Assembly (NCBI RefSeq): GCF_003334255.1
Contig: NZ_QOWU01000001.1
From: Escherichia coli
GTDB lineage: Bacteria; Pseudomonadota; Gammaproteobacteria; Enterobacterales; Enterobacteriaceae
Length of the DNA stretch: 64,000 bases
Reading direction: 5' to 3' (one strand)
Both the position numbers and the translations under genes were made by a program. Below the pieces are notes generated by a model, which saw only the letters and a program-made list of their open reading frames with translations, did not search any database and was not told where the DNA came from. Numbering within the stretch: the first letter of the stretch is position 1; the number at the start of each line of letters is the position of its first letter. Shown one piece after another: positions 19 to 61,282 of this stretch.

Positions 19-342
19 CATGACCTCTATATATTTATCTCCGGCGGTCATACCCGTCGTCTTTCAGGCCGCAGCGGCGTTAGCTTCACGCCCTCACCCC
101 AGTCACTTACTTATGTAAGCTCCTGGGGATTCTGGCGCTTGCTACCTTGCTGCACCCAGAAATCCATAGGGTATGTGAAGTAATACCCTAACCACCACCG
201 GGTCGTTCTATCCGTCGGTATTTTACAAAATTGTTAACAATTTTTAAACAACAAACGGCAACCGATTTGTCTATTCGCTAATAACCTCAATACATTCATG
301 AGATTACCAGAAAAAAGCCGGCCGTTGGGCCGGCTCTTTTAC
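19..342 (-). promoter_or_regulatory. aceF-lpd intergenic region holding the independent lpd promoter
   Basis: 324-bp non-coding gap between aceF stop and lpd start; lpd is known to have its own promoter here; individual sites not resolved. Confidence 0.4.
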
Positions 343-2235
343 TTACATCACCAGACGGCGAATGTCAGACAGCGTGTTGTTAATGATGGTAATGAAACGG
401 GCACCATCAGCACCGTCGATCACGCGGTGGTCGAAGGAGAGAGAAATCGGCAGCATCAGACGCGGCACGAACTCTTTACCATTCCACACCGGCTCCATCG
501 CGGACTTGGAAACGCCGAGGATAGCCACTTCCGGCGCGTTCACAATCGGCGCGAAGTGGGTAGTACCCAGGCCGCCGATGCTGGAGATGGTGAAGCAACC
601 GCCCTGCATTTCGCCCGCAGTCAGCTTACCGTCACGCGCTTTCTTAGAAATAGTCATCAGCTCGCGAGACAGCTCGATGATGCCTTTCTTGTTGACGTCT
701 TTGAATACCGGAACAACCAGACCGTTCGGGGTATCCACCGCCACACCGATGTTGATGTATTTCTTCAGGGTCAGACGCTGACCGTCTTCCGACAGCGAAC
801 TATTGAAGCGAGGCATCTGCTCAAGAGCTGCAGCAACGGCTTTCATGATGAAGACAACCGGGGTGATCTTCACATCCAGCTTACGTTTCGCCGCTTCTTC
901 GTTCTGCTGTTTACGGAACGCTTCCAACTCGGTGATATCGGTTTTGTCGAAGTGAGTAACATGCGGGATCATTACCCAGTTACGGCTCAGGTTCGCACCA
1001 GAGATTTTCTGGATGCGGCCCAGTTCCACTTCTTCGATTTCACCAAACTTGCTGAAGTCCACCTTCGGCCACGGCAGCATGCCAGGGATACCACCGCCAG
1101 TCGCTGCCGGAGCTGCTTCTGCACGTTTGATAGCTTCTTTCACGTAAGCCTGAACGTCTTCGCGCAGGATACGACCTTTACGGCCAGTGCCCTTCACTTT
1201 CGCAAGGTTAACACCAAACTCGCGTGCCAGACGGCGGATCAGCGGAGTCGCGTGAACATAAGCGTCGTTTTCAGCAAATTCAGATTTGCCTTCCGCTTTC
1301 GCAGCTGGTGCTGCTGCCGGGGCTTCAGCTTTTGCTGCCGGTGCCGGCGCTGCCGCTTCCTGTTTCGCAGGAGCTGCCGCAGGCGCTGCGCCTTCAACTT
1401 CGAAGATCATAATCAGCGAGCCAGTTTTCACTTTATCGCCAACGTTGACTTTCAGTTCCTTCACGACGCCTGCAAACGGCGCCGGAACTTCCATAGAAGC
1501 TTTGTCGCCTTCTACGGTGATCAGTGACTGTTCAGCGGCAACTTTGTCGCCCACTTTCACCATCACTTCAGTCACTTCAACTTCGTCACCGCCGATATCC
1601 GGAACGTTAACTTCTTTCACGCCAGCCGCTGGTGCAGGGGCCGCTGCCGGAGCTGCTTCCTGTTTAGCGGCCGGAGCTGCCGCGCCTGCTTCACCCGCGA
1701 CTTCGAAGACCATAATCAGCGAGCCGGTAGACACTTTGTCACCCACGTTCACTTTGATCTCTTTCACGGTGCCAGCAAACGGAGCCGGAACTTCCATAGA
1801 AGCCTTGTCGCCTTCTACGGTGATCAGCGACTGTTCAGCTTCAACTTTATCGCCAACTTTCACCAGGATTTCGGTCACTTCAACTTCGTCGCTGCCGATA
1901 TCCGGAACGTTAACGTCTTTTGCCGCCGCAGCCGCTGGTGCTGCTGCCGGAGCTGCTTCTTTCTTCTCTTCTGCCTGAGCAGGTGCAGCGTCTGCTGCAC
2001 CGTCGGCGGAATCGAAAATCATAATCAGTGCGCCGGTCTGGGTTTTATCGCCAACAGAGACTTTGATCTCTTTAACGATACCCGCCTGCGGAGACGGAAC
2101 TTCCATAGAGGCTTTGTCGCCTTCTACGGTGATCAGCGACTGTTCGGCTTCAACTTTGTCGCCCACTTTGACCAGGATCTCGGTGATTTCAACTTCATCA
2201 GCCCCGATGTCCGGTACTTTGATTTCGATAGCCAT
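343..2235 (-). CDS. aceF: pyruvate dehydrogenase E2, dihydrolipoyllysine acetyltransferase (630 aa)
   Basis: ORF track 343..2235; N-terminus [28 protein letters not shown]; three repeated lipoyl-domain motifs ([15 protein letters not shown]) with Ala/Pro linkers; C-terminal catalytic motif DHRVIDGA. Confidence 0.97.
1340..2235. repeat. three tandem ~300-bp intragenic repeats encoding the three lipoyl domains of E2
   Basis: ORF translation shows the lipoyl-domain block three times; the reverse-strand Ala-rich ORF 1286..1978 is a by-product of this repeat. Confidence 0.8.
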
Positions 2236-2249
2236 TATTCTTTTACCTC

Positions 2250-4913
2250 TTACGCCAGACGCGGGTTAACTTTATCTGCATCGATGTTGAATTTGGCGAT
2301 TGCGTCAGCAACCACTTTCTTATCGATTTCGCCACGTTTAGCCAGTTCGCCCAGCGCCGCAACCACGACATAAGAAGCATCAACTTCGAAGTGGTGACGC
2401 AGGTTCTCACGGCTGTCGGAACGACCGAAGCCATCAGTACCCAGTACGCGGTAGTCGTCAGCCGGTACGTAAGTACGGACCTGCTCAGCGAACAGTTTCA
2501 TATAGTCGGTAGATGCCACTGCCGGAGCGTCGTTCATCACCTGAGCGATATACGGAACGCGCGGAGTTTCCAGCGGGTGCAGCATGTTCCAGCGTTCACA
2601 ATCCTGACCATCACGCGCCAGCTCGGTGAAGGAGGTCACGCTATAAACGTCAGAACCTACGCCGTAATCTTTCGCCAGGATCTCAGCTGCTTCACGGACG
2701 TGACGCAGGATAGAACCGGAGCCGAGCAGCTGAACTTTACCTTTGCTACCTTCAATAGTTTCGAGTTTGTAGATACCTTTACGGATACCTTCCTCAGCAC
2801 CTTCCGGCATTGCCGGCATGTGGTAGTTTTCGTTCAGCGTAGTGATGTAGTAGTAAACGTTCTCTTGTTTTTCACCGTACATACGCTCCAGACCGTCATG
2901 CATGATGACAGCAACTTCGTAAGCGTAAGCCGGGTCGTAAGAGATACAGTTCGGGATAGTCAGCGACTGAATGTGGCTGTGACCATCTTCGTGCTGCAGA
3001 CCTTCGCCGTTCAGGGTGGTACGACCGGAAGTACCGCCGATCAGGAAGCCACGCGCTTGCTGGTCGCCAGCCGCCCAGCACAGATCGCCAATACGCTGGA
3101 AGCCGAACATCGAGTAATAGATGTAGAACGGGATCATCGGCAGATTGTTGGTGCTGTAAGAGGTCGCCGCTGCCAGCCAGGAACAACCTGCGCCCAGCTC
3201 GTTGATCCCTTCCTGCAGAATCTGACCTTTCTCGTCTTCTTTATAGTAAGCAACCTGCTCGCGGTCCTGCGGGGTGTACTGCTGACCGTTCGGGCTGTAA
3301 ATACCAATCTGACGGAACAGACCTTCCATACCGAAAGTACGCGCTTCGTCGGCGATGATCGGTACCAGACGATCTTTGATCGACTTGTTCTTCAGCATCA
3401 CGTTCAGAGCACGAACGAAAGCGATAGTGGTAGAGATCTCTTTGCTCTGCTCTTCCAACAGCGCGCCGAAGTCTTGCAGGCTCGGCAGCTCAAGCTTCTC
3501 GGTGAAGTTCGGCTGACGGCTTGGCAGATAACCGTGCAGTTTCTGACGCTGAGCGTGCAGATAGGTATGCTCTTCAGAACCTTCCGGGAAGGTGATGTAC
3601 GGCAGTTTTTCGATATCTGCATCAGACACCGGCACATTGAAACGGTCGCGGATATGACGCACACCGTCCATGTTCATTTTCTTAACCTGGTGCGCGATGT
3701 TTTTACCTTCAGCCGCGTCGCCCATGCCGTAACCTTTAATGGTATGAGCAAGGATTACTGTCGCTTTGCCTTTGGTTTCCTGCGCTTTCTTGAATGCAGC
3801 GTAGATTTTCTTCGGATCGTGACCACCACGGTTCAGTGCCCAGATCTGCTCGTCAGTCCAGTCTGCAACCAGTGCTGCGGTTTCAGGATATTTACCGAAG
3901 AAGTGTTCACGAACGTACGCACCATCTTTCGATTTGAAGGTCTGGTAGTCGCCGTCAACGGTTTCGTTCATCAGCTGGATCAGTTTACCGCTGGTATCCT
4001 TACGCAGCAGTTCATCCCAACGGCTACCCCACATCACTTTGATCACGTTCCAGCCAGCACCTTCGAAGATGCCTTCCAGTTCGTTGATGATCTTGCCGTT
4101 ACCGGTGACCGGGCCGTCAAGACGCTGCAGGTTACAGTTGATAACGAAGACCAGGTTATCCAGTTTTTCACGGGTAGCGATGGTGATCGCACCTTTGGAT
4201 TCCGGTTCGTCCATTTCACCGTCACCGAGGAACGCGTAAACGGTTTGTTTAGAGGTATCTTTCAGGCCACGGTGTTCCAGATATTTCAGGAATTTAGCCT
4301 GGTAAATAGCACCAATCGGACCCAGACCCATAGATACGGTCGGGAACTGCCAGAATTCCGGCATCAGTTTCGGGTGCGGATAGGAAGAGAGGCCATTGCC
4401 GTGAACTTCCTGACGGAAGTTATCCAGCTGCTCCTGAGTCAGACGACCTTCCAGGAAAGCACGAGCGTACACGCCCGGGGAGATGTGGCCCTGGAAGTAA
4501 ACCAGGTCGCCGCCATCCTGCTCGTTGCGTGCACGGAAGAAGTGGTTAAAGCACACATCATAAATGGTTGCGGAAGACTGGAAGGACGCCATATGGCCGC
4601 CCAGTTCGAGGTCTTTTTTCGACGCACGCAGCACCGTCATGATGGCGTTCCAGCGGATAGCTGAACGAATACGGCGTTCCAGTTCCAGATTACCCGGATA
4701 CTCCGGTTGTTCTTCAACGGGGATGGTGTTGATGTAGTTGCTGATACCTGTGCCTGCGGCTACGTTTACACCGCCTTTGCGGGCTTCAGCAAGCAGTTGG
4801 TCGATCAGATACTGAGCACGCTCAACACCTTCTTCACGGATGACCGATTCGATCGCCTGGAGCCAGTCGCGAGTTTCGATCGGATCCACGTCATTTGGGA
4901 AACGTTCTGACAT
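2250..4913 (-). CDS. aceE: pyruvate dehydrogenase E1 component (887 aa)
   Basis: ORF track 2250..4913; N-terminus [29 protein letters not shown]; lies directly upstream of aceF. Confidence 0.97.
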
Positions 4914-5073
4914 GGGTTATTCCTTATCTATCTAATAACGTTGAGTTTTCTGGAACCTGTCCCATTGAACTCTCGCCGGAAAGCTCAATAAGACAGGTTC
5001 TACGTTTAGTTGCCGCGCTTTTATATGCGCTTGATTTACAACATCTTCTGGATAATTTTTACCAGAAAAATCA

Positions 5074-16286: not shown

Positions 16287-16496
<210 letters not shown>

Positions 16497-16500
<4 letters not shown>

Positions 16501-16886: not shown

Positions 16887-16945
16887 TGTCTTAAACCTAT
16901 AAAAAAGGCGCAGAATCCTGCGCCTTTTACTTCAACAGTTAGCTT

Positions 16946-19651
16946 TTATTGCAGGCGGCCATGGCACTGCTTGTATTTTTTACCAGAACCGCACGGGCAA
17001 GGATCGTTACGTCCTACTTTGCGCTCTCCGGTTTGCGCCGCCAGTGCAGCTGCGGCTGCAGAGTCGTCATCCTGATGGCTAAGCTGCTGCATTTGCGCTA
17101 AACGCTCGGCTTCCATACGACGCTGTTGTTCCAGCTCCTCAACCTCTTCAGGCATACGTACCTGAACTTTGCTCAGCGTACTGATAACTTCATATTTCAA
17201 CGACTCCAGCATCGCTGCAAACATGGAGAACGATTCACGTTTGTATTCCTGCTTCGGATCTTTCTGTGCGTAGCCACGCAGGTGGATACCCTGACGCAGA
17301 TAGTCCATCGCTGCCAGGTGCTCTTTCCACAGGGAGTCAAGCGTTTGCAGCATGACGCCTTTCTCGAAGTGACGCATCATCTCAGCACCAACCACTTCTT
17401 CTTTACGCTGATACACTTCGATGGACTGCGCCAGAATGCGCTCACGCAGCGTCTCTTCATGCAGTTCTGGTTCTTTATCCAGCCACTCGGCAATTGGCAA
17501 ATCGAGGTCGAAATCGTTCTTCAGACGTTCCTGCAGCCCCGGAATATCCCACATTTCTTCCAGCGACTGTGGTGGAATGTAGGCATCAATGGTCGCTTTG
17601 AACACATCTTCACGAATGCTGTTAATGGTTTCGCTCACATCGCTGACATCCAACAGTTCGTTACGCTGGGAGTAAATGGCGCGACGCTGATCGTTAGCCA
17701 CGTCATCATATTCCAGCAGTTGCTTACGAATGTCGAAGTTACGGCTTTCAACTTTACGCTGGGCGTTGGCAATCGCTTTAGTCACCCACGGGTGTTCAAT
17801 GGCTTCGCCTGGCTTCATACCCAGTTTACGCATCATGCCGGATACTCGGTCGGAAGCAAAAATACGCATCAGCGCATCTTCCATCGACAGGTAGAAACGG
17901 GAAGAACCAGCATCCCCCTGACGACCAGAACGACCGCGCAACTGGTTATCGATACGACGGGATTCGTGACGCTCGGTACCGATGATATGCAGGCCACCTG
18001 CTTCCAGTACCGCATCGTGACGTACCTGCCAGTCGGCTTTAATTTTTTCAATTTGCTCTGCGGTCGGATTTTCCAGCGCGGCAACTTCTGCCTGCCAGCT
18101 ACCACCGAGCACAATATCTGTACCACGACCCGCCATATTGGTCGCGATAGTCACCGCAGCCGGATAACCTGCCTGAGCAACAATCGCCGCTTCGTTGGCG
18201 TGGAATTTGGCGTTCAGGACGTTGTGCTTAATACCGGCTTTGGTCAGTTCGTTTGACACCAGCTCCGATTTTTCGATGGAGATAGTACCCACCAGCACCG
18301 GCTGGCCTTTCGCAGTACGTTCTTTGATATCTTCAATGATCGCCTGAATTTTTTCCGCTTCAGTCATGTAGACCAGGTCCGGCAGATCTTTACGAATCAT
18401 TGGACGGTTGGTCGGAACAACGACGGTATCCAGCTTGTAGATTGAGCTAAATTCGAAAGCTTCGGTATCAGCAGTACCGGTCATCCCCGCCAGTTTTTCA
18501 TACAGACGGAAGTAGTTCTGGAAGGTGATCGAAGCCAGCGTTTGGTTTTCGTTCTGGATCTGCACACCTTCTTTCGCTTCCACAGCCTGGTGCAGACCAT
18601 CGGACCAGCGACGGCCCTGCATGGTACGACCGGTGTGTTCGTCAACGATGATAACTTCACCATCTTTAACGATGTAGTCGACGTCACGGGTAAACAGCGC
18701 ATGAGCGCGCAGCGCCGCCGTTACGTGGTGCATCAGCATGATGTTGGCCGGAGAGTACAGAGACTCCCCTTCATCCATGATGCCCTCTTTCACCAGCAGT
18801 TCTTCAATCAGCACCAGACCACGTTCGGTCAGGTTCACCTGGCGAGATTTTTCGTCCACCGAGAAGTGGCCTTCGCCCTGGAAGGTTTCGGAGTCTTCTT
18901 TTTCCTGACGGATCAGGTGCGGAATAATTTTATTCACGCGTTTATACATTTCCGAGCTGTCTTCTGCCGGGCCGGAAATGATCAGCGGTGTACGCGCTTC
19001 ATCGATCAGGATGGAGTCCACTTCGTCCACCAGCGCATAGTGCAGTTTACGCTGTACACGTTCTTCAGGGCTGAACGCCATGTTGTCGCGCAGGTAGTCA
19101 AAGCCGTATTCGTTGTTCGTACCGTAAGTGATGTCAGCTGCGTAAGCTTCGCGCTTTGCCGGTGCTGGCATGCCCGGCAGGTTGATACCGACAGTCAGGC
19201 CAAGGAATTCAAACAGCGGACGGTTGTTTTCGGCGTCACGTTGCGCCAGGTAGTCGTTGACGGTAACTACGTGCACGCCTTTACCGGTTAGTGCGTTCAG
19301 GTAAGCAGGCAGCGTTGCGGTCAGGGTTTTTCCTTCACCGGTACGCATTTCGGCGATGCAGCGTTCGTTAAGAACCATACCGCCGAGTAACTGAACGTCG
19401 AAGTGACGCATACCAAAGACGCGCTTACTTGCCTCACGTACCACGGCGAAAGCTTCCGGGATCAGATTTTCCAGCACTTCGCCTTTTTCCAGACGTGCAC
19501 GAAACTCTGCGGTTTTCCCTTTCAGTTCTTCGTCGGAGAGTTTTTCCATCTCCGGTTCCATGGCATTGATGATGTTGACCACTTTGCGCATCCGGCGCAG
19601 GGTGCGATCGTTACGACTACCGAAAACTTTAGTTAACAATTTGATTAGCAT
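16946..19651 (-). CDS. secA: preprotein translocase ATPase SecA (901 aa)
   Basis: ORF track; [29 protein letters not shown]; C-terminal zinc-binding [14 protein letters not shown]. Confidence 0.97.
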
Positions 19652-21473: not shown

Positions 21474-22625
21474 TTAATCAGCTTGCTTACGCAGGAATGC
21501 TGGGATATCCAGATAATCCGGCTCTTTCGCAGTTTGCGGCGCATTGTCATTCACGACTTTAGCAACCGGCTTCTGCTCCTGGGTCAGCGGAGCCATCCCA
21601 TGCTGCTGGTAGCGATCCATCACTGGCTGCTGAACCTGCTTATTGGTCACCAGAGTGATTTCAGGACGTTTGTCCATGCCGATACCTGTCGCAACAACGG
21701 TTACGCGCAGCTCGTCATTCATATCCGGGTCAAGAGAAGTACCGATAACCACAGTCGCGTTGTCGGAAGCAAATGCACGGATGGTGTTACCTACCGTTTC
21801 GAACTCATCCAGACGCAGGTCGAAGCCCGCCGTGATGTTAACCAGCACGCCGCGCGCGCCAGACAGGTCGATATCTTCCAGCAGCGGAGAAGAGATAGCC
21901 ATTTCAGCAGCTTCTTCCGCACGGTCTTCACCGCTCGCCACGCCAGAACCCATCATTGCGTAGCCCATCTCAGACATTACGGTGCGTACGTCTGCAAAGT
22001 CCACGTTCATCAAACCCGGACGAGTAATCAGTTCAGCGATACCTTGCACAGCGCCTTTCAGTACATCGTTCGCTGCGCCAAACGCATCCAGCAGGGAGAT
22101 ACCGCGGCCCAGAACTTTCAGCAGTTTGTCGTTCGGGATAGTGATCAGAGAGTCCACATGCTTGGACAGTTCAGTGATCCCCTGCTCCGCGAATGCCATA
22201 CGCTTCTTGCCTTCAAAGTTGAAAGGCTTAGTGACGACAGCAACGGTCAGGATACCCAAATCTTTTGCCACTTCAGCGACGACTGGTGCTGCACCTGTAC
22301 CGGTACCACCACCCATACCCGCAGCAATAAAGACCATGTCTGCACCTTCCAGCGCCGCACGCAATGCATCGCGATCCTCATCAGCCGCATTGCGGCCAAC
22401 TTCTGGATTAGCGCCAGCGCCCAGTCCTTTGGTGATACCGCTACCGATTTGAATCGTCTGTCCAACCGCTGTTTTACGCAGCGCTTGTGCATCGGTATTT
22501 ACCGCGAAGAATTCAACACCTTCAATGCGCTCGCGCACCATGTGTTCAACAGCATTACCGCCGCCGCCGCCGACGCCGATGACTTTAATCACCGCGTCAT
22601 TGGTAAGTTCCATTGGTTCAAACAT
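21474..22625 (-). CDS. ftsZ: cell division GTPase FtsZ (383 aa)
   Basis: ORF track; [30 protein letters not shown]; tubulin signature GGGTGTG. Confidence 0.98.
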
Positions 22626-22685
22626 AGTTTCTCTCCGATTTGTGCCTGTCGCCTGAGGCCGTAATCATCGTCGGCCTCATAAAAA

Positions 22686-23948
22686 TTAAAACTCTTTTCG
22701 CAGCCAACTATTGAGTCGCTTGATCCACGAGCCAACTGATGCTGTAACACGTTTTTCTACTTCAGCTTCACCGTTAAGATGTGACTCTTTCCCATAGTGA
22801 AGCAATCCCACCGCCGTCGAATAATACGGCTCCTGAGCATAATCCGTTAAACCGGTAATGTTCAGCGGCGCGCCGATACGCACTTGCGTATGAAACACGC
22901 GCTGAGCACAGGCTGCAAGACCTTCGATCTGCGCTGCGCCACCGGTTAATACAATGCCTGCCGCCAGGTGATGTTTAACCCCTTGTTGGCGAAGCTTTTC
23001 CTGCAACTGCAATATCTCTTCGTTGACCAGGTTGAGCAGCTCGGTATAGCGCGGCTCGATCACCTCTGCCAGTGTCTGACGTTGCAGACTCCGTGGCGGA
23101 CGACCACCTACGCTCGGCACTTCCACGCTCTCATCTTTTCCAACGATGGAACCCAGCGCACAACCGTGGCGAACTTTAATCGCTTCGGCGTCGCTTGGCG
23201 GCGTGCCAAAGGCGTAAGCGATATCACTGGTCACGACATTGCCAGCATAAGGAATTACCTTAGTGTGGCGCAATGCCCCACCGGTATAAACGGCGATATC
23301 CATTGTACCACCACCGATATCGACGACGCAGACACCCAGTTCACGTTCATCTTCCGTCAATACCGAATAACTTGATGCCAGTCCGGCAAATATCAGTTGG
23401 TCAACTTTCAGCCCACAACGTTCAACCGCTTTGACGATGTTTTTCGCCATATCGTTGTGACATGTGATCAGGTGCACTTTTGCCTGCATCCGCACGCCCG
23501 AAAGTCCTACCGGATTCTTGATCCCTTCCTGATAGTCAATCGCATACTCTTGCGGGATCACATGCAGCACACGATGCTCATCGCGCACACGCACCGATTT
23601 CGCGGTATGGACGACGTTTTCCACATCTTCTTGCGTCACTTCTTCTTCAGAAATAGGCACCATACCAATTTCATTCTGGCAGCTGATGTGCTTACCAGAA
23701 AGCGCCAGATATACCGAAGAGATCTGACAATCTGCCATCAATTCTGCCTGGTCAATGGCGCGTTGTACGCACTTGACCACGGATTCGAGGTCGTTCACCC
23801 CGCCTTTATCCATACCACGCGACGGGCAGCTGCCCACGCCAATGATATTGACCATACCGTCGGGCAGAACTTCCCCTACTAAAGCGGCAACCTTCGCGGT
23901 ACCAATCTCCAGTCCTACTACCAGTTTTCTGTCCGTCGCCTTGATCAT
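22686..23948 (-). CDS. ftsA: cell division protein FtsA (420 aa)
   Basis: ORF track; [31 protein letters not shown]; actin-like ATPase. Confidence 0.97.
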
Positions 23949-44190: not shown

Positions 44191-44221
44191 AAGCATATCG
44201 CATTCATCTGGAGCTGATTTA

Positions 44222-44308
44222 ATGACTCACATCGTTCGCTTTATCGGTCTACTACTACTAAACGCATCTTCTTTGCGCGGTAGACGAGTGAGCGGCATCC
44301 AGCATTAA
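44222..44308 (+). CDS. leuL: leu operon leader peptide (28 aa)
   Basis: ATG at 44222; [28 protein letters not shown]; four consecutive CUA Leu codons at 44249..44260. Confidence 0.92.
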
Positions 44309-44332
44309 GCCAGCACGCAGTCAAACAAAAAA

Positions 44333-44357
44333 CCCGCGCCATTGCGCGGGTTTTTTT
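44333..44357 (+). terminator. leu attenuator (rho-independent terminator)
   Basis: CCCGCGCC attg CGCGGG followed by TTTTTTT, 25 bp downstream of the leuL stop and 44 bp upstream of leuA. Confidence 0.9.
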
Positions 44358-47065: not shown

Positions 47066-49082
<2,017 letters not shown>

Positions 49083-49090
49083 TCCCCTTG

Positions 49091-49112
49091 CCCGGTCAAA
49101 TGACCGGGCTTT
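49091..49112. terminator. stem-loop between convergent leuD and setA
   Basis: CCCGGTCA aa TGACCGGG followed by CTTTCC, 9 bp after the leuD stop. Confidence 0.55.
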
Positions 49113-49130
49113 CCGCTATCGTCCACGTCA

Positions 49131-50309
49131 TCAAACGTCTTTAACCTTTGCGGTTAAAAATAATGCGACAACAGAAATAACCGCAATTACCCAGTAGACA
49201 GCAAAGTGCCCCCAACTTTGTGCAATTGCTCCCTGAATAACGCCAGCCAGAATTACCCCGGTAGAAATACTGTTAGTAAATAAGGTGGTAGCTGCCCCCG
49301 CTCTTCCAGGCATTAAATCCTGAAACCATAGCATCCCAATACCCGCAACAATGCCGATAAATACAGCGTTAAAAAGTTGCAGCGTCATCAACGCCATACG
49401 GCTATTAAAGAAAATCAATCCGGTGTAAAACAGTACTCCTGCCGCCACTGCTATGACCATCATTCGCCGCTTACCATAACGTTTGACATAGTAGCCAGCC
49501 AGAATCATTGCTGGTATTTCCAGTCCAGCTGCCGTCCCCATCAGGAAACCCGCCAGTTTGTCTGGCAATCCTAACTCGCTACTGATCCACAACGGCATAT
49601 CAATAATGTACATGGTGTTGCAGGTCCACATTAACGTCGAGGCGACAAATAACATCCGTACGTTACTATCCTGCCAGCCACCTTGCATTGATAAAGCATT
49701 TTCCGACGGCAGTTCTACCCGCGCCACAGACGGAAGCATAAATGCAATCAATACCAGACTGAGTGTGAATATCCCGGCGGCAATCGAAAACATCACCGTA
49801 AAGCCGTAATTCAACGCCAGCATAAAGGCCAACGGTGGACCGATAACCCATGCCAGAGAAAGCTGCGCACGCATCACCGAGCTAAACATCACCACTTCTC
49901 GCGCCGAGTTATCCGCATATTCCCGCGCCAGAGCAAATAACTGTGGCATTGCCGTATTGGCCAGAGATGCCAGAAGCACACCACAGGTGATAAGCGTCAG
50001 ATAATGACGATTAAATGCAAACAATAGCGCATTGCCGATAGCCATCAAACAGCAAAATATAATCAGTTTTCGCCGATCGCCCTGACTGTCAGAACGTTTT
50101 GCCAACCAGAGGCTTACGCCGATCCCAGCAATAGCATTCACCGTATAAAAGAGGCCGATCCAGAAAGGTTGCGCGCCAACCTCACGACTCAGAAATAAGC
50201 TCAATGTAGGAGCCTGTAGCGCCCCGGCCACCCCCATCATAAAAGCGACCAGCATAAATGCCGCGTAAACACCGTTCATACGGCGAGCCATCGTCATTAT
50301 CCAGATCAT
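49131..50309 (-). CDS. setA: sugar efflux transporter A, MFS (392 aa)
   Basis: ORF track; MIWIMTMARRMNGVYAAFMLVAFMMGVAGALQAPTLSLFLSREVGAQPFW; 12-TM MFS. Confidence 0.94.
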   Translation of the reverse strand: MIWIMTMARRMNGVYAAFMLVAFMMGVAGALQAPTLSLFLSREVGAQPFWIGLFYTVNAIAGIGVSLWLAKRSDSQGDRRKLIIFCCLMAIGNALLFAFNRHYLTLITCGVLLASLANTAMPQLFALAREYADNSAREVVMFSSVMRAQLSLAWVIGPPLAFMLALNYGFTVMFSIAAGIFTLSLVLIAFMLPSVARVELPSENALSMQGGWQDSNVRMLFVASTLMWTCNTMYIIDMPLWISSELGLPDKLAGFLMGTAAGLEIPAMILAGYYVKRYGKRRMMVIAVAAGVLFYTGLIFFNSRMALMTLQLFNAVFIGIVAGIGMLWFQDLMPGRAGAATTLFTNSISTGVILAGVIQGAIAQSWGHFAVYWVIAVISVVALFLTAKVKDV

Positions 50310-50336
50310 ACGTTCCCTTTTTAGCGCGGCGAGAAT

Positions 50337-50563
50337 AAAAAAAACCAGCAGGTATAATCTGCTGGCGGGTGATTTTACACCAATACTCAGTCACACATGA
50401 TGCAGGCAAGTCAACTTTCAGAATTGCGGTCATCCCACTGCATCAGTCCTTCAAGCATGGTTAATCGTTGTGGGACGCTTAACCAACGCAACCAGCACAA
50501 CTTCGCTGTCGCGGTAAAATAGTGCTGATAAAACTGACGCATGGGGCACCCCCTTGCTTCATC
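50337..50563 (-). ncRNA. sgrS: SgrS small RNA (~227 nt), dual-function sugar-phosphate stress sRNA
   Basis: Minus strand from 50563 reads GATGAAGCAAGGGGGTGCCCCATGCGTCAG, the SgrS 5' end as I recall it; 3' end is CCAGCAG attatac CTGCTGG (50345..50365) plus U8 (50337..50344), preceded by the ptsG-pairing region ...TGTGTGACTGAGTATTGGTG... Confidence 0.88.
50411..50542 (-). CDS. sgrT: SgrT small protein (43 aa), encoded within SgrS
   Basis: ATG at 50540..50542; MRQFYQHYFTATAKLCWLRWLSVPQRLTMLEGLMQWDDRNSES; the 99-aa ORF-track entry is an upstream in-frame extension. Confidence 0.85.
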   Translation of the reverse strand: MRQFYQHYFTATAKLCWLRWLSVPQRLTMLEGLMQWDDRNSES

Positions 50564-50630
50564 GTTAGGAATTATTGACTTAATATAGGGAAAATAAAAT
50601 TGCTGTCTTTTGCACAGGAGTTCCCCTTTT

Positions 50631-52286
50631 ATGCCATCTGCTCGTCTGCAACAACAGTTCATCCGCCTGTGGCAATGCTGCGAGGGTAAATCGCAGGACA
50701 CAACGCTCAACGAACTGGCAGCGTTATTGAGCTGCTCGCGTCGTCATATGCGCACCCTGCTCAACACCATGCAGGATCGCGGCTGGCTGACGTGGGAAGC
50801 GGAAGTCGGGCGCGGTAAACGCTCGCGTCTGACATTCCTCTATACCGGGCTGGCGCTTCAGCAACAGCGGGCGGAAGACCTGCTGGAGCAGGATCGTATC
50901 GATCAACTGGTGCAGTTGGTTGGCGACAAAGCGACTGTGCGGCAAATGCTGGTTTCTCATCTGGGCCGCAGCTTCCGCCAGGGGCGGCACATCCTGCGCG
51001 TGCTCTACTATCGTCCGTTGCGTAATCTGCTACCTGGCAGCGCATTGCGCCGTTCCGAAACCCATATCGCCCGGCAAATCTTCAGTTCGCTAACGCGCAT
51101 AAATGAGGAAAATGGGGAACTGGAAGCAGACATCGCCCACCACTGGCAGCAAATTTCACCGCTTCACTGGCGTTTCTTTTTGCGTCCAGGAGTCCATTTT
51201 CACCATGGTCGTGAACTGGAAATGGACGATGTGATCGCCTCTTTAAAACGAATCAATACGCTGCCGCTCTATTCGCATATTGCTGACATTGTGTCGCCGA
51301 CGCCCTGGACGCTGGATATCCATCTCACGCAACCGGACCGCTGGTTACCGTTACTGCTGGGGCAAGTTCCGGCGATGATCCTGCCGCGCGAATGGGAAAC
51401 CCTCAGTAACTTTGCCAGCCATCCCATCGGCACCGGTCCGTATGCGGTGATTCGCAACAGCACCAATCAACTGAAAATTCAGGCATTCGATGACTTCTTC
51501 GGTTACCGGGCATTAATCGACGAAGTTAACGTCTGGGTTCTGCCGGAAATTGCCGACGAGCCAGCCGGAGGGCTGATGCTAAAAGGTCCACAGGGCGAGG
51601 AAAAAGAGATTGAAAGCCGCCTGGAGGAAGGTTGCTACTATTTACTGTTCGACAGCCGCACCCATCGCGGGGCGAATCAGCAAGTCAGGGACTGGGTAAG
51701 CTATGTGCTTTCTCCAACTAATCTGGTCTATTTCGCTGAGGAACAGTACCAGCAACTGTGGTTCCCGGCTTATGGACTGCTCCCCCGTTGGCACCATGCC
51801 CGCACCATAAAGAGCGAAAAACCGGCTGGCCTGGAAAGCCTCACCCTAACCTTTTATCAGGATCACAGTGAGCATCGGGTGATTGCCGGGATCATGCAGC
51901 AGATTCTGGCAAGTCACCAGGTCACGCTGAAAATCAAAGAGATCGACTACGATCAGTGGCATACAGGAGAGATCGAAAGTGATATCTGGCTAAACAGCGC
52001 CAACTTTACCCTGCCGCTGGACTTCTCTGTTTTCGCACATTTATGCGAAGTGCCACTGCTACAACATTGCATTCCCATTGACTGGCAAGCCGACGCTGCT
52101 CGCTGGCGCAATGGCGAGATGAATCTGGCGAACTGGTGCCAGCAACTGGTCGCCAGCAAAGCGATGGTGCCATTATTGCACCACTGGCTGATCATTCAGG
52201 GGCAACGCAGTATGCGCGGCCTGCGCATGAATACCCTCGGCTGGTTCGATTTTAAATCAGCGTGGTTTGCGCCACCGGATCCATGA
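50631..52286 (+). CDS. sgrR: transcriptional regulator SgrR (551 aa)
   Basis: ORF 50610..52286 trimmed to the ATG at 50631 ([45 protein letters not shown]); divergent from sgrS. Confidence 0.93.
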
Positions 52287-52321
52287 TTGCTGGTTGATAA
52301 CAAAATCACTACACTAACGCC

Positions 52322-52414
52322 GTTCTCAACGGGGTGCCACGCGTACGCGTGCGCTGAGAAAATACCCGTCGAACCTGATCCGGATAACGCCGGCGAAGGG
52401 ATTTGAGGCTCCTT
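52322..52414 (+). promoter_or_regulatory. TPP (THI-box) riboswitch in the thiBPQ leader (SroA region)
   Basis: GGGGTGCCACGCGTACGCGTGCGCTGAGAAAATACCCGTCGAACCTGATCCGGATAACGCCGGCGAAGGGA carries the conserved THI-element CUGAGA and ACCUGAUCYGGAUAAUGCCAGCGAAGGGA-like core, 40-130 bp upstream of thiB. Confidence 0.85.
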
Positions 52415-52449
52415 CTCAAGTCCTTTGCCACTCTTTTTTGAGGTGCAAA

Positions 52450-61100: not shown

Positions 61101-61282
61101 CCGCATCCGGTATGTAACGCCTGATGCGACGCTGACGCGTCTTATCTGGCCTACACGCTGCGATTTTGTAGGCCGGATAAGCAAAGCGCATCCGGCATTC
61201 AACGCCTGATGCGACGCTGGCGCGTCTTATCAGGCCTACACGCTGCGATTTTGTAGGCCGGATAAGCAAAGCGCATCCGGCA
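61101..61282. repeat. tandem REP/BIME array in the araA-araD spacer: two complete 85-bp units plus a 12-bp partial
   Basis: Unit 1 61101..61185 and unit 2 61186..61270 are near-identical (GCGCATCCGG..AACGCCTGATGCGACGCTG.CGCGTCTTATC.GGCCTACACGCTGCGATTTTGTAGGCCGGATAAGCAAA); 61271..61282 restarts the unit. Confidence 0.9.

Follow-up and report, generated by a model that had tools for sequence, protein, structure and literature searches.

Does the minus-strand DNA between sgrR and setA in this stretch of the Escherichia coli genome (the window, 64,000 nucleotides of contig NZ_QOWU01000001.1) encode a protein of 99 residues, as a mechanical list of open reading frames has it, or the dual-function small RNA SgrS with the small gene sgrT embedded in it, as a sequence-only reading had proposed, and is setA transcribed together with it? 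Comparison with reference genomes makes it very probable (about 0.98) that this is the sgrR–sgrS/sgrT–setA sugar-phosphate-stress locus of E. coli K-12. Among enteric bacteria, no dual-function sRNA was described before SgrS, and sgrS serves as a model for how the efficiency of termination decides between the fates of sRNA and mRNA. In what follows, the identity and anatomy of the locus, the family matches and the complementarity to ptsG come from our own analysis, while activation by SgrR, dependence on Hfq and RNase E, the activity of SgrT and the read-through into setA are taken from the literature.

Identity and extent of the SgrS locus

Positions 48230..52430 of the window are the exact reverse complement of MG1655 NC_000913.3 75500..79700 (4201 nt, 0 mismatches), and a second K-12 stretch (104900..105600) likewise finds an exact match just where it should lie if the whole window corresponds, in reverse complement, to K-12 63930..127929. 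Annotated in the K-12 record are sgrS (b4577, 77367..77593, 227 nt), sgrT (b4662, 77388..77519), the divergent sgrR (b0069) and setA (b0070, from 77621), and the geometry of these four genes is the same in the window, where SgrS lies divergent from sgrR and between it and leuD (48477..49082, plus strand). Sequence, 227-nt length, 43-aa ORF, pairing region and terminator are all identical to those of MG1655 sgrS and sgrT, as are the divergent sgrR and the placement of setA 27 nt downstream, leaving no difference besides orientation. Of 5426 complete E. coli genomes, 5400 matched a 451-nt query across the locus, many of them at 100% identity, with sgrT, sgrR and setA annotated beneath the matches, and nothing that contradicts the K-12 identity turned up. 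Judged by its sequence, the SgrS of the window is the reference SgrS allele itself and not a mere relative. The sgrS/sgrT locus of the window is thus already known and fully described, with no novelty for the window itself; what we report is the correct identification of a classic model system, which serves as a positive control and brings no new biology. The locus is composed as follows:

50631..52286, plus strand: sgrR, divergent gene of the transcription factor activating sgrS (NCBIfam NF010149; K-12 b0069)
50564..50630, not assigned to a strand: sgrR–sgrS intergenic region of 67 nt, holding the sgrS promoter (coordinates; PMC4021124, PMC2760817)
50337..50563, minus strand: SgrS small RNA, 227 nt (full-length match to Rfam RF00534; K-12 sgrS b4577)
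50535..50561, minus strand: 5' stem-loop, SgrS nt 3-29, with the core GGGG-GUG-CCCC at nt 11-21 (local fold of nt 1-45)
50411..50542, minus strand: sgrT coding sequence, 43 codons plus stop, product MRQFYQHYFTATAKLCWLRWLSVPQRLTMLEGLMQWDDRNSES (Pfam PF15894; b4662 in K-12)
50376..50397, minus strand: target base-pairing region, SgrS nt 167-188, sequence TGTGTGACTGAGTATTGGTGTA (best local duplex with ptsG)
50368..50381, minus strand: small GGTG/CACC hairpin upstream of the terminator (local folds and centroid structure)
50337..50366, minus strand: Rho-independent terminator with an 8-bp stem and 7-nt loop (50366..50344) and U8 (50344..50337) (terminator scan, Rfam consensus structure, T-run count)
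50310..50336, minus strand: spacer of 27 nt from the SgrS 3' end to the setA ATG, with a Shine-Dalgarno-like AAGGGA (coordinates)
49131..50309, minus strand: setA, sugar efflux transporter (TIGR00899; identical to K-12 b0070)

The extent of the RNA follows from a scan with all 4227 Rfam families, repeated over the whole window, in which RF00534 (SgrS) matched 50563..50337 on the minus strand with 228.8 bits against a gathering score of 37, over model positions 1-232 of 232 (E 4.6e-65). The sequence-only reading had itself named a failure of the SgrS covariance model in this region as the result that would speak against it, and the region passed this test strongly; the elements that it had found legible on the minus strand, from the SgrS 5' end over the sgrT frame and the ptsG-pairing region to the terminator, are each present where it had placed them. 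Its interval of 50337..50631 does cover the locus but is wider than the RNA, which occupies only 50337..50563, the rest being the 67-nt intergenic region and the first base of the sgrR ATG (50631). The minus-strand sequence of SgrS opens with GATGAAGCAAGGGGGTGCCCC at 50563, and PMC2760817 cites the transcription start sites of K-12 sgrS as experimentally determined. Folded as a whole, SgrS reaches a minimum free energy of -79.2 kcal/mol (z = -3.43 compared with dinucleotide shuffles). Its 3' part has the architecture of an Hfq module, with the terminator stem (50366..50344) and U8 preceded by the small hairpin at 50381..50368; Hfq is described as binding this hairpin together with the terminator stem-loop and its poly(U) tail (PMC4021124, citing Ishikawa 2012). 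Both Hfq binding and SgrR-dependent induction under stress, the latter with alpha-methylglucoside and Northern blots, have been shown for exactly this sequence (PMC4021124, PMC4509938), as have the activity of SgrT and the read-through into setA.

On the other side of the RNA, SgrR matched NCBIfam NF010149 ("HTH-type transcriptional regulator SgrR") with 1126.8 bits (cutoff 476) over residues 1-550. Annotation and model both support the ATG at 50631 as its start (551 aa); the ORF list begins the gene at a TTG at 50610 (558 aa) instead, and the 7 extra codons (50610..50630) fall in the promoter region of sgrS. This conserved intergenic region is known to contain the SgrR-dependent sgrS promoter (PMC4021124, PMC2760817), and a consensus promoter scan placed no canonical sigma-70 promoter suitably spaced from the sgrS 5' end. 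Among -10-like hexamers, AATAAT (50576..50571, minus strand) has the best position, ending at -8; a further 17 nt upstream stands TTTTAT, which agrees with TTGACA in only 2 of 6 bases. The hit that the scan did return, AAGACA-16-TATATT (50609..50582), was rejected as the sgrS promoter since its -10 element ends at -19 from the annotated 5' end. A good -10 element without a -35 element would fit an activator-dependent promoter, and in published work accumulating sugar phosphates lead SgrR to switch on sgrS from this divergent position (PMC4021124).

The scan of the whole window also returned several RNA features at a distance from sgrS:

4916..5029, plus strand: tp2, 103.4 bits (Rfam; K-12 122901..123014 by offset)
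16304..16381 and 16421..16497, minus strand: two copies of naRNA4 (Rfam; K-12 111433..111626 by offset)
16901..16970, minus strand: STnc40, 84 bits (Rfam; K-12 110960..111029 by offset)
22617..22706, minus strand: match to "PssrA, plasmid-encoded Shigella sRNA A", 105.5 bits (Rfam scan)
44208..44357, plus strand: leucine operon leader/attenuator (Rfam RF00512), 145.8 bits, upstream of leuC and leuD at 47066..49082
52320..52419, plus strand: TPP riboswitch (Rfam RF00059), 65.9 bits against a threshold of 54.3, upstream of thiB and just past the sgrR stop
61171..61236, plus strand: third copy of naRNA4, barely above threshold (Rfam; K-12 66694..66759 by offset)

The three naRNA4 copies score 60-78 bits, and the TPP riboswitch coincides with a K-12 annotation as "small RNA SroA" (75516..75608). 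The match to PssrA, a misleading family name at this site, is chromosomal: on the sense strand, facing the annotated antisense RNA StfZ, it extends from the 3' end of ftsA across the ftsA-ftsZ spacer into the first bases of ftsZ.

The sgrT reading frame and pairing with ptsG

The AUG of sgrT is located at SgrS nt 22 (window 50542), and the frame extends over SgrS nt 22-153 to a TGA at 50413..50411. The embedded 43-codon frame noted from the letters alone is confirmed by a match of its product to Pfam PF15894 (SgrT; E 3.5e-13, 49.5 bits, residues 3-37); unlike Pfam, NCBIfam offered no matching model, and RefSeq genomes annotate sgrT. The mechanical list reports a 99-aa ORF (50411..50710, minus strand) instead, which opens with a TTG in frame with sgrT. 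Its presence in that list and the shared frame could be taken to mean that the longer ORF is a real coding gene with sgrT merely as its C-terminal part, to which we give practically no credence. The TTG is 147 nt away from the annotated 5' end of SgrS, on its upstream side; the frame passes in antisense over the first 80 nt of the sgrR coding sequence and then over the promoter region, and there is no transcript from which its N-terminal extension could be translated. Moreover, none of the RefSeq records examined annotates it, and the Pfam SgrT family aligns to the 43-aa part only. The 99-aa ORF, rightly called misleading at the outset, arises only because the sgrT frame was prolonged to the nearest start codon upstream, an artefact that illustrates how a longest-ORF track can misreport a small gene embedded in an sRNA.

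It might also be argued that SgrS of the K-12 allele is in effect a base-pairing RNA only, with sgrT as a nearly silent relic. The local fold of SgrS nt 1-45 (-12.4 kcal/mol) predicts a 5' stem-loop that covers and would mask the Shine-Dalgarno sequence and start codon of sgrT, in agreement with reports that 5' structure in K-12 SgrS limits sgrT translation (PMC4021124, PMC2760817), and SgrT is accordingly poorly translated in K-12 because this hairpin covers its ribosome-binding site. The native K-12 allele indeed produces very little SgrT, sgrT alone gives no growth rescue in K-12 (PMC4021124), and the sgrT start codon has been lost in O157:H7 (sequence comparison; PMC4021124). However, the sgrT ORF of the window is intact, is conserved with its ATG start and belongs to a Pfam family. 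Matches to the 71-nt stretch around this start were found in 5395 of 5426 complete genomes, and the exact O157 haplotype with ATT was found in only 312 of them; ectopic expression of SgrT, furthermore, inhibits glucose uptake (PMC4021124). We therefore regard a mere relic as unlikely and keep to a dual function of SgrS, the 5' half of which is the mRNA for 43-aa SgrT, an inhibitor of PtsG transporter activity (PMC4021124).

The second function resides in SgrS nt 167-188 (50397..50376). When 24-nt windows of SgrS were slid along K-12 ptsG from -40 to +10, this segment formed the single best local duplex with ptsG mRNA -29..-8, including the AGGAG Shine-Dalgarno sequence, at -27.8 kcal/mol, which none of 200 dinucleotide shuffles of SgrS reached (-18.1 ± 2.5 kcal/mol), so that the ptsG-pairing region made out in the sequence-only reading stands. 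From the 5' side of SgrS the helices measure 4-8-5 bp, and read from the opposite end this is the interaction published as "5-8-4" (PMC2760817). With a mean unpaired probability of 0.67 for nt 168-187 vs 0.38 for the whole RNA, this is also the most accessible internal part of SgrS. A duplex fold of full-length SgrS with 133 nt of the ptsG leader was set aside as uninformative: at -59.6 kcal/mol vs a shuffle average of -65.8 it yields an end-to-end zipper, and such a fold is unsuited to the question, since it disregards intramolecular structure and permits huge loops. According to published work, nt 167-188 pair together with Hfq across the ptsG ribosome-binding site, which blocks translation and entails decay by RNase E, and SgrS in addition represses manXYZ and activates yigL; the dual function, SgrR activation, roles of Hfq and RNase E, low native SgrT translation in K-12 and the manXYZ and yigL targets are all described in PMC4021124.

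The SgrS terminator and read-through into setA

The terminator consists of the inverted repeat GCCAGCAG…CTGCTGGT at 50366..50344, with 5 G-C pairs in its stem, and a run of exactly 8 T. The hairpin with U8 had been read at 50337..50365, which is correct to within one base given that the stem begins at 50366. Two further terminator-like hits, at 50550..50536 in the sgrT start region and at 50263..50250 inside setA, are weak 5-bp stems and were dismissed as terminators. A short gap of 28 nt between terminator and setA had also been noted; the spacer is indeed short, but the intervening nucleotides number 27 (last U at 50337, ATG at 50309), 28 being the coordinate difference, and 27 bp is the published length (PMC9765468). 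The product of setA matched the TIGR00899 sugar efflux transporter model with 602.6 bits (cutoff 522.3).

Since setA follows directly on the same strand, the terminator raises the question whether the two genes are transcriptionally connected. One could hold that setA is an independent transcription unit, fully insulated by the SgrS terminator and close to it by coincidence, and the strong appearance of the terminator (an 8-bp stem with 5 G-C pairs, then U8) speaks in favor of this. Yet the 27-nt spacer is too short to accommodate a promoter for setA, and read-through within an sgrS-setA operon has been demonstrated by Northern blots with a setA probe and with sgrS-setA-lacZ fusions, in which deletion of the terminator raised setA-lacZ expression just 1.6- to 1.8-fold (PMC4509938, PMC9765468). 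Induction of setA is, moreover, described as SgrR-dependent (PMC4021124, citing Sun & Vanderpool 2011). We thus find full insulation highly improbable, and the co-transcription of sgrS and setA by read-through, with which the sequence-only reading had found their proximity consistent, is borne out by the literature.

Co-transcription leaves each sgrS transcript with two possible ends. Transcripts ending at the hairpin and U8 carry the 3' poly(U) tail required by Hfq, and transcripts that continue are inactive as sRNA and act as mRNA for setA, which begins 27 nt downstream. Published work reports that sgrS transcripts often read through and that the longer RNAs, having lost Hfq binding, function as mRNA for setA (PMC4509938, PMC9765468). 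Stress makes the sgrS terminator more efficient (PMC4509938), which implies that the induction of setA reflects more initiation at the sgrS promoter and not more read-through per transcript.

Variation downstream of sgrS and comparison with other systems

Of the 5426 complete E. coli genomes, 2158 (around 40%) have no setA downstream of sgrS, and in them the convergent leuD directly follows the SgrS terminator. The match of these 2158 genomes to the K-12 locus has an identity of only ca. 92% and breaks off precisely where SgrS ends at its 3' side; a query across the sgrS-leuD junction of O157 retrieved the same 2158 genomes, 2144 of them at a coverage of at least 80%. By these matches, E. coli genomes fall into two types in the region following sgrS, and we did not find the setA-less fraction stated in the sgrS literature examined. 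It is conceivable, if very doubtful, that read-through from sgrS in setA-less strains runs antisense into leuD, in which case the stress-induced sgrS promoter of such strains might link leucine biosynthesis to sugar-phosphate stress, or selection might have favored another terminator there. This idea is speculative and has no bearing on the K-12-type allele of the window.

The O157:H7-type allele of sgrS (e.g., NZ_CP038360.1) shares with the window its promoter, 5' end, ORF frame, core pairing sequence AUGUGUGACUGAGUAUUGGUGU and terminator stem. It differs in having ATT in place of the sgrT ATG, a loss of the start codon that was already known (PMC4021124), in the C-terminus of SgrT (…EELMQWEGSHSDY), in the loop of the terminator and in a U tract interrupted as U6-C-U5 vs the U8 of the window. 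It also lacks setA and has the convergent leuD directly after sgrS (2860..2900 of the O157 record L002). RefSeq annotates the O157:H7 sgrT as a coding sequence despite its ATT (2659..2790 of the same record, aligned to window 50542..50411). Beyond sgrR, where the K-12-type locus has the TPP riboswitch and thiB, the O157:H7 record carries the type III secretion system effector gene espY2 (114..683), which hints at the insertion of an island on this flank.

Outside of the enteric bacteria, RNAIII/hld of Staphylococcus aureus and SR1/SR1P of Bacillus subtilis are unrelated to SgrS in sequence, targets and host. In SgrS, both the RNA and the peptide act on one pathway, that of PtsG. What RNAIII/hld and SR1/SR1P share with SgrS is the principle of one transcript that is likewise a base-pairing regulator and the mRNA of a small protein (PMC12310071).
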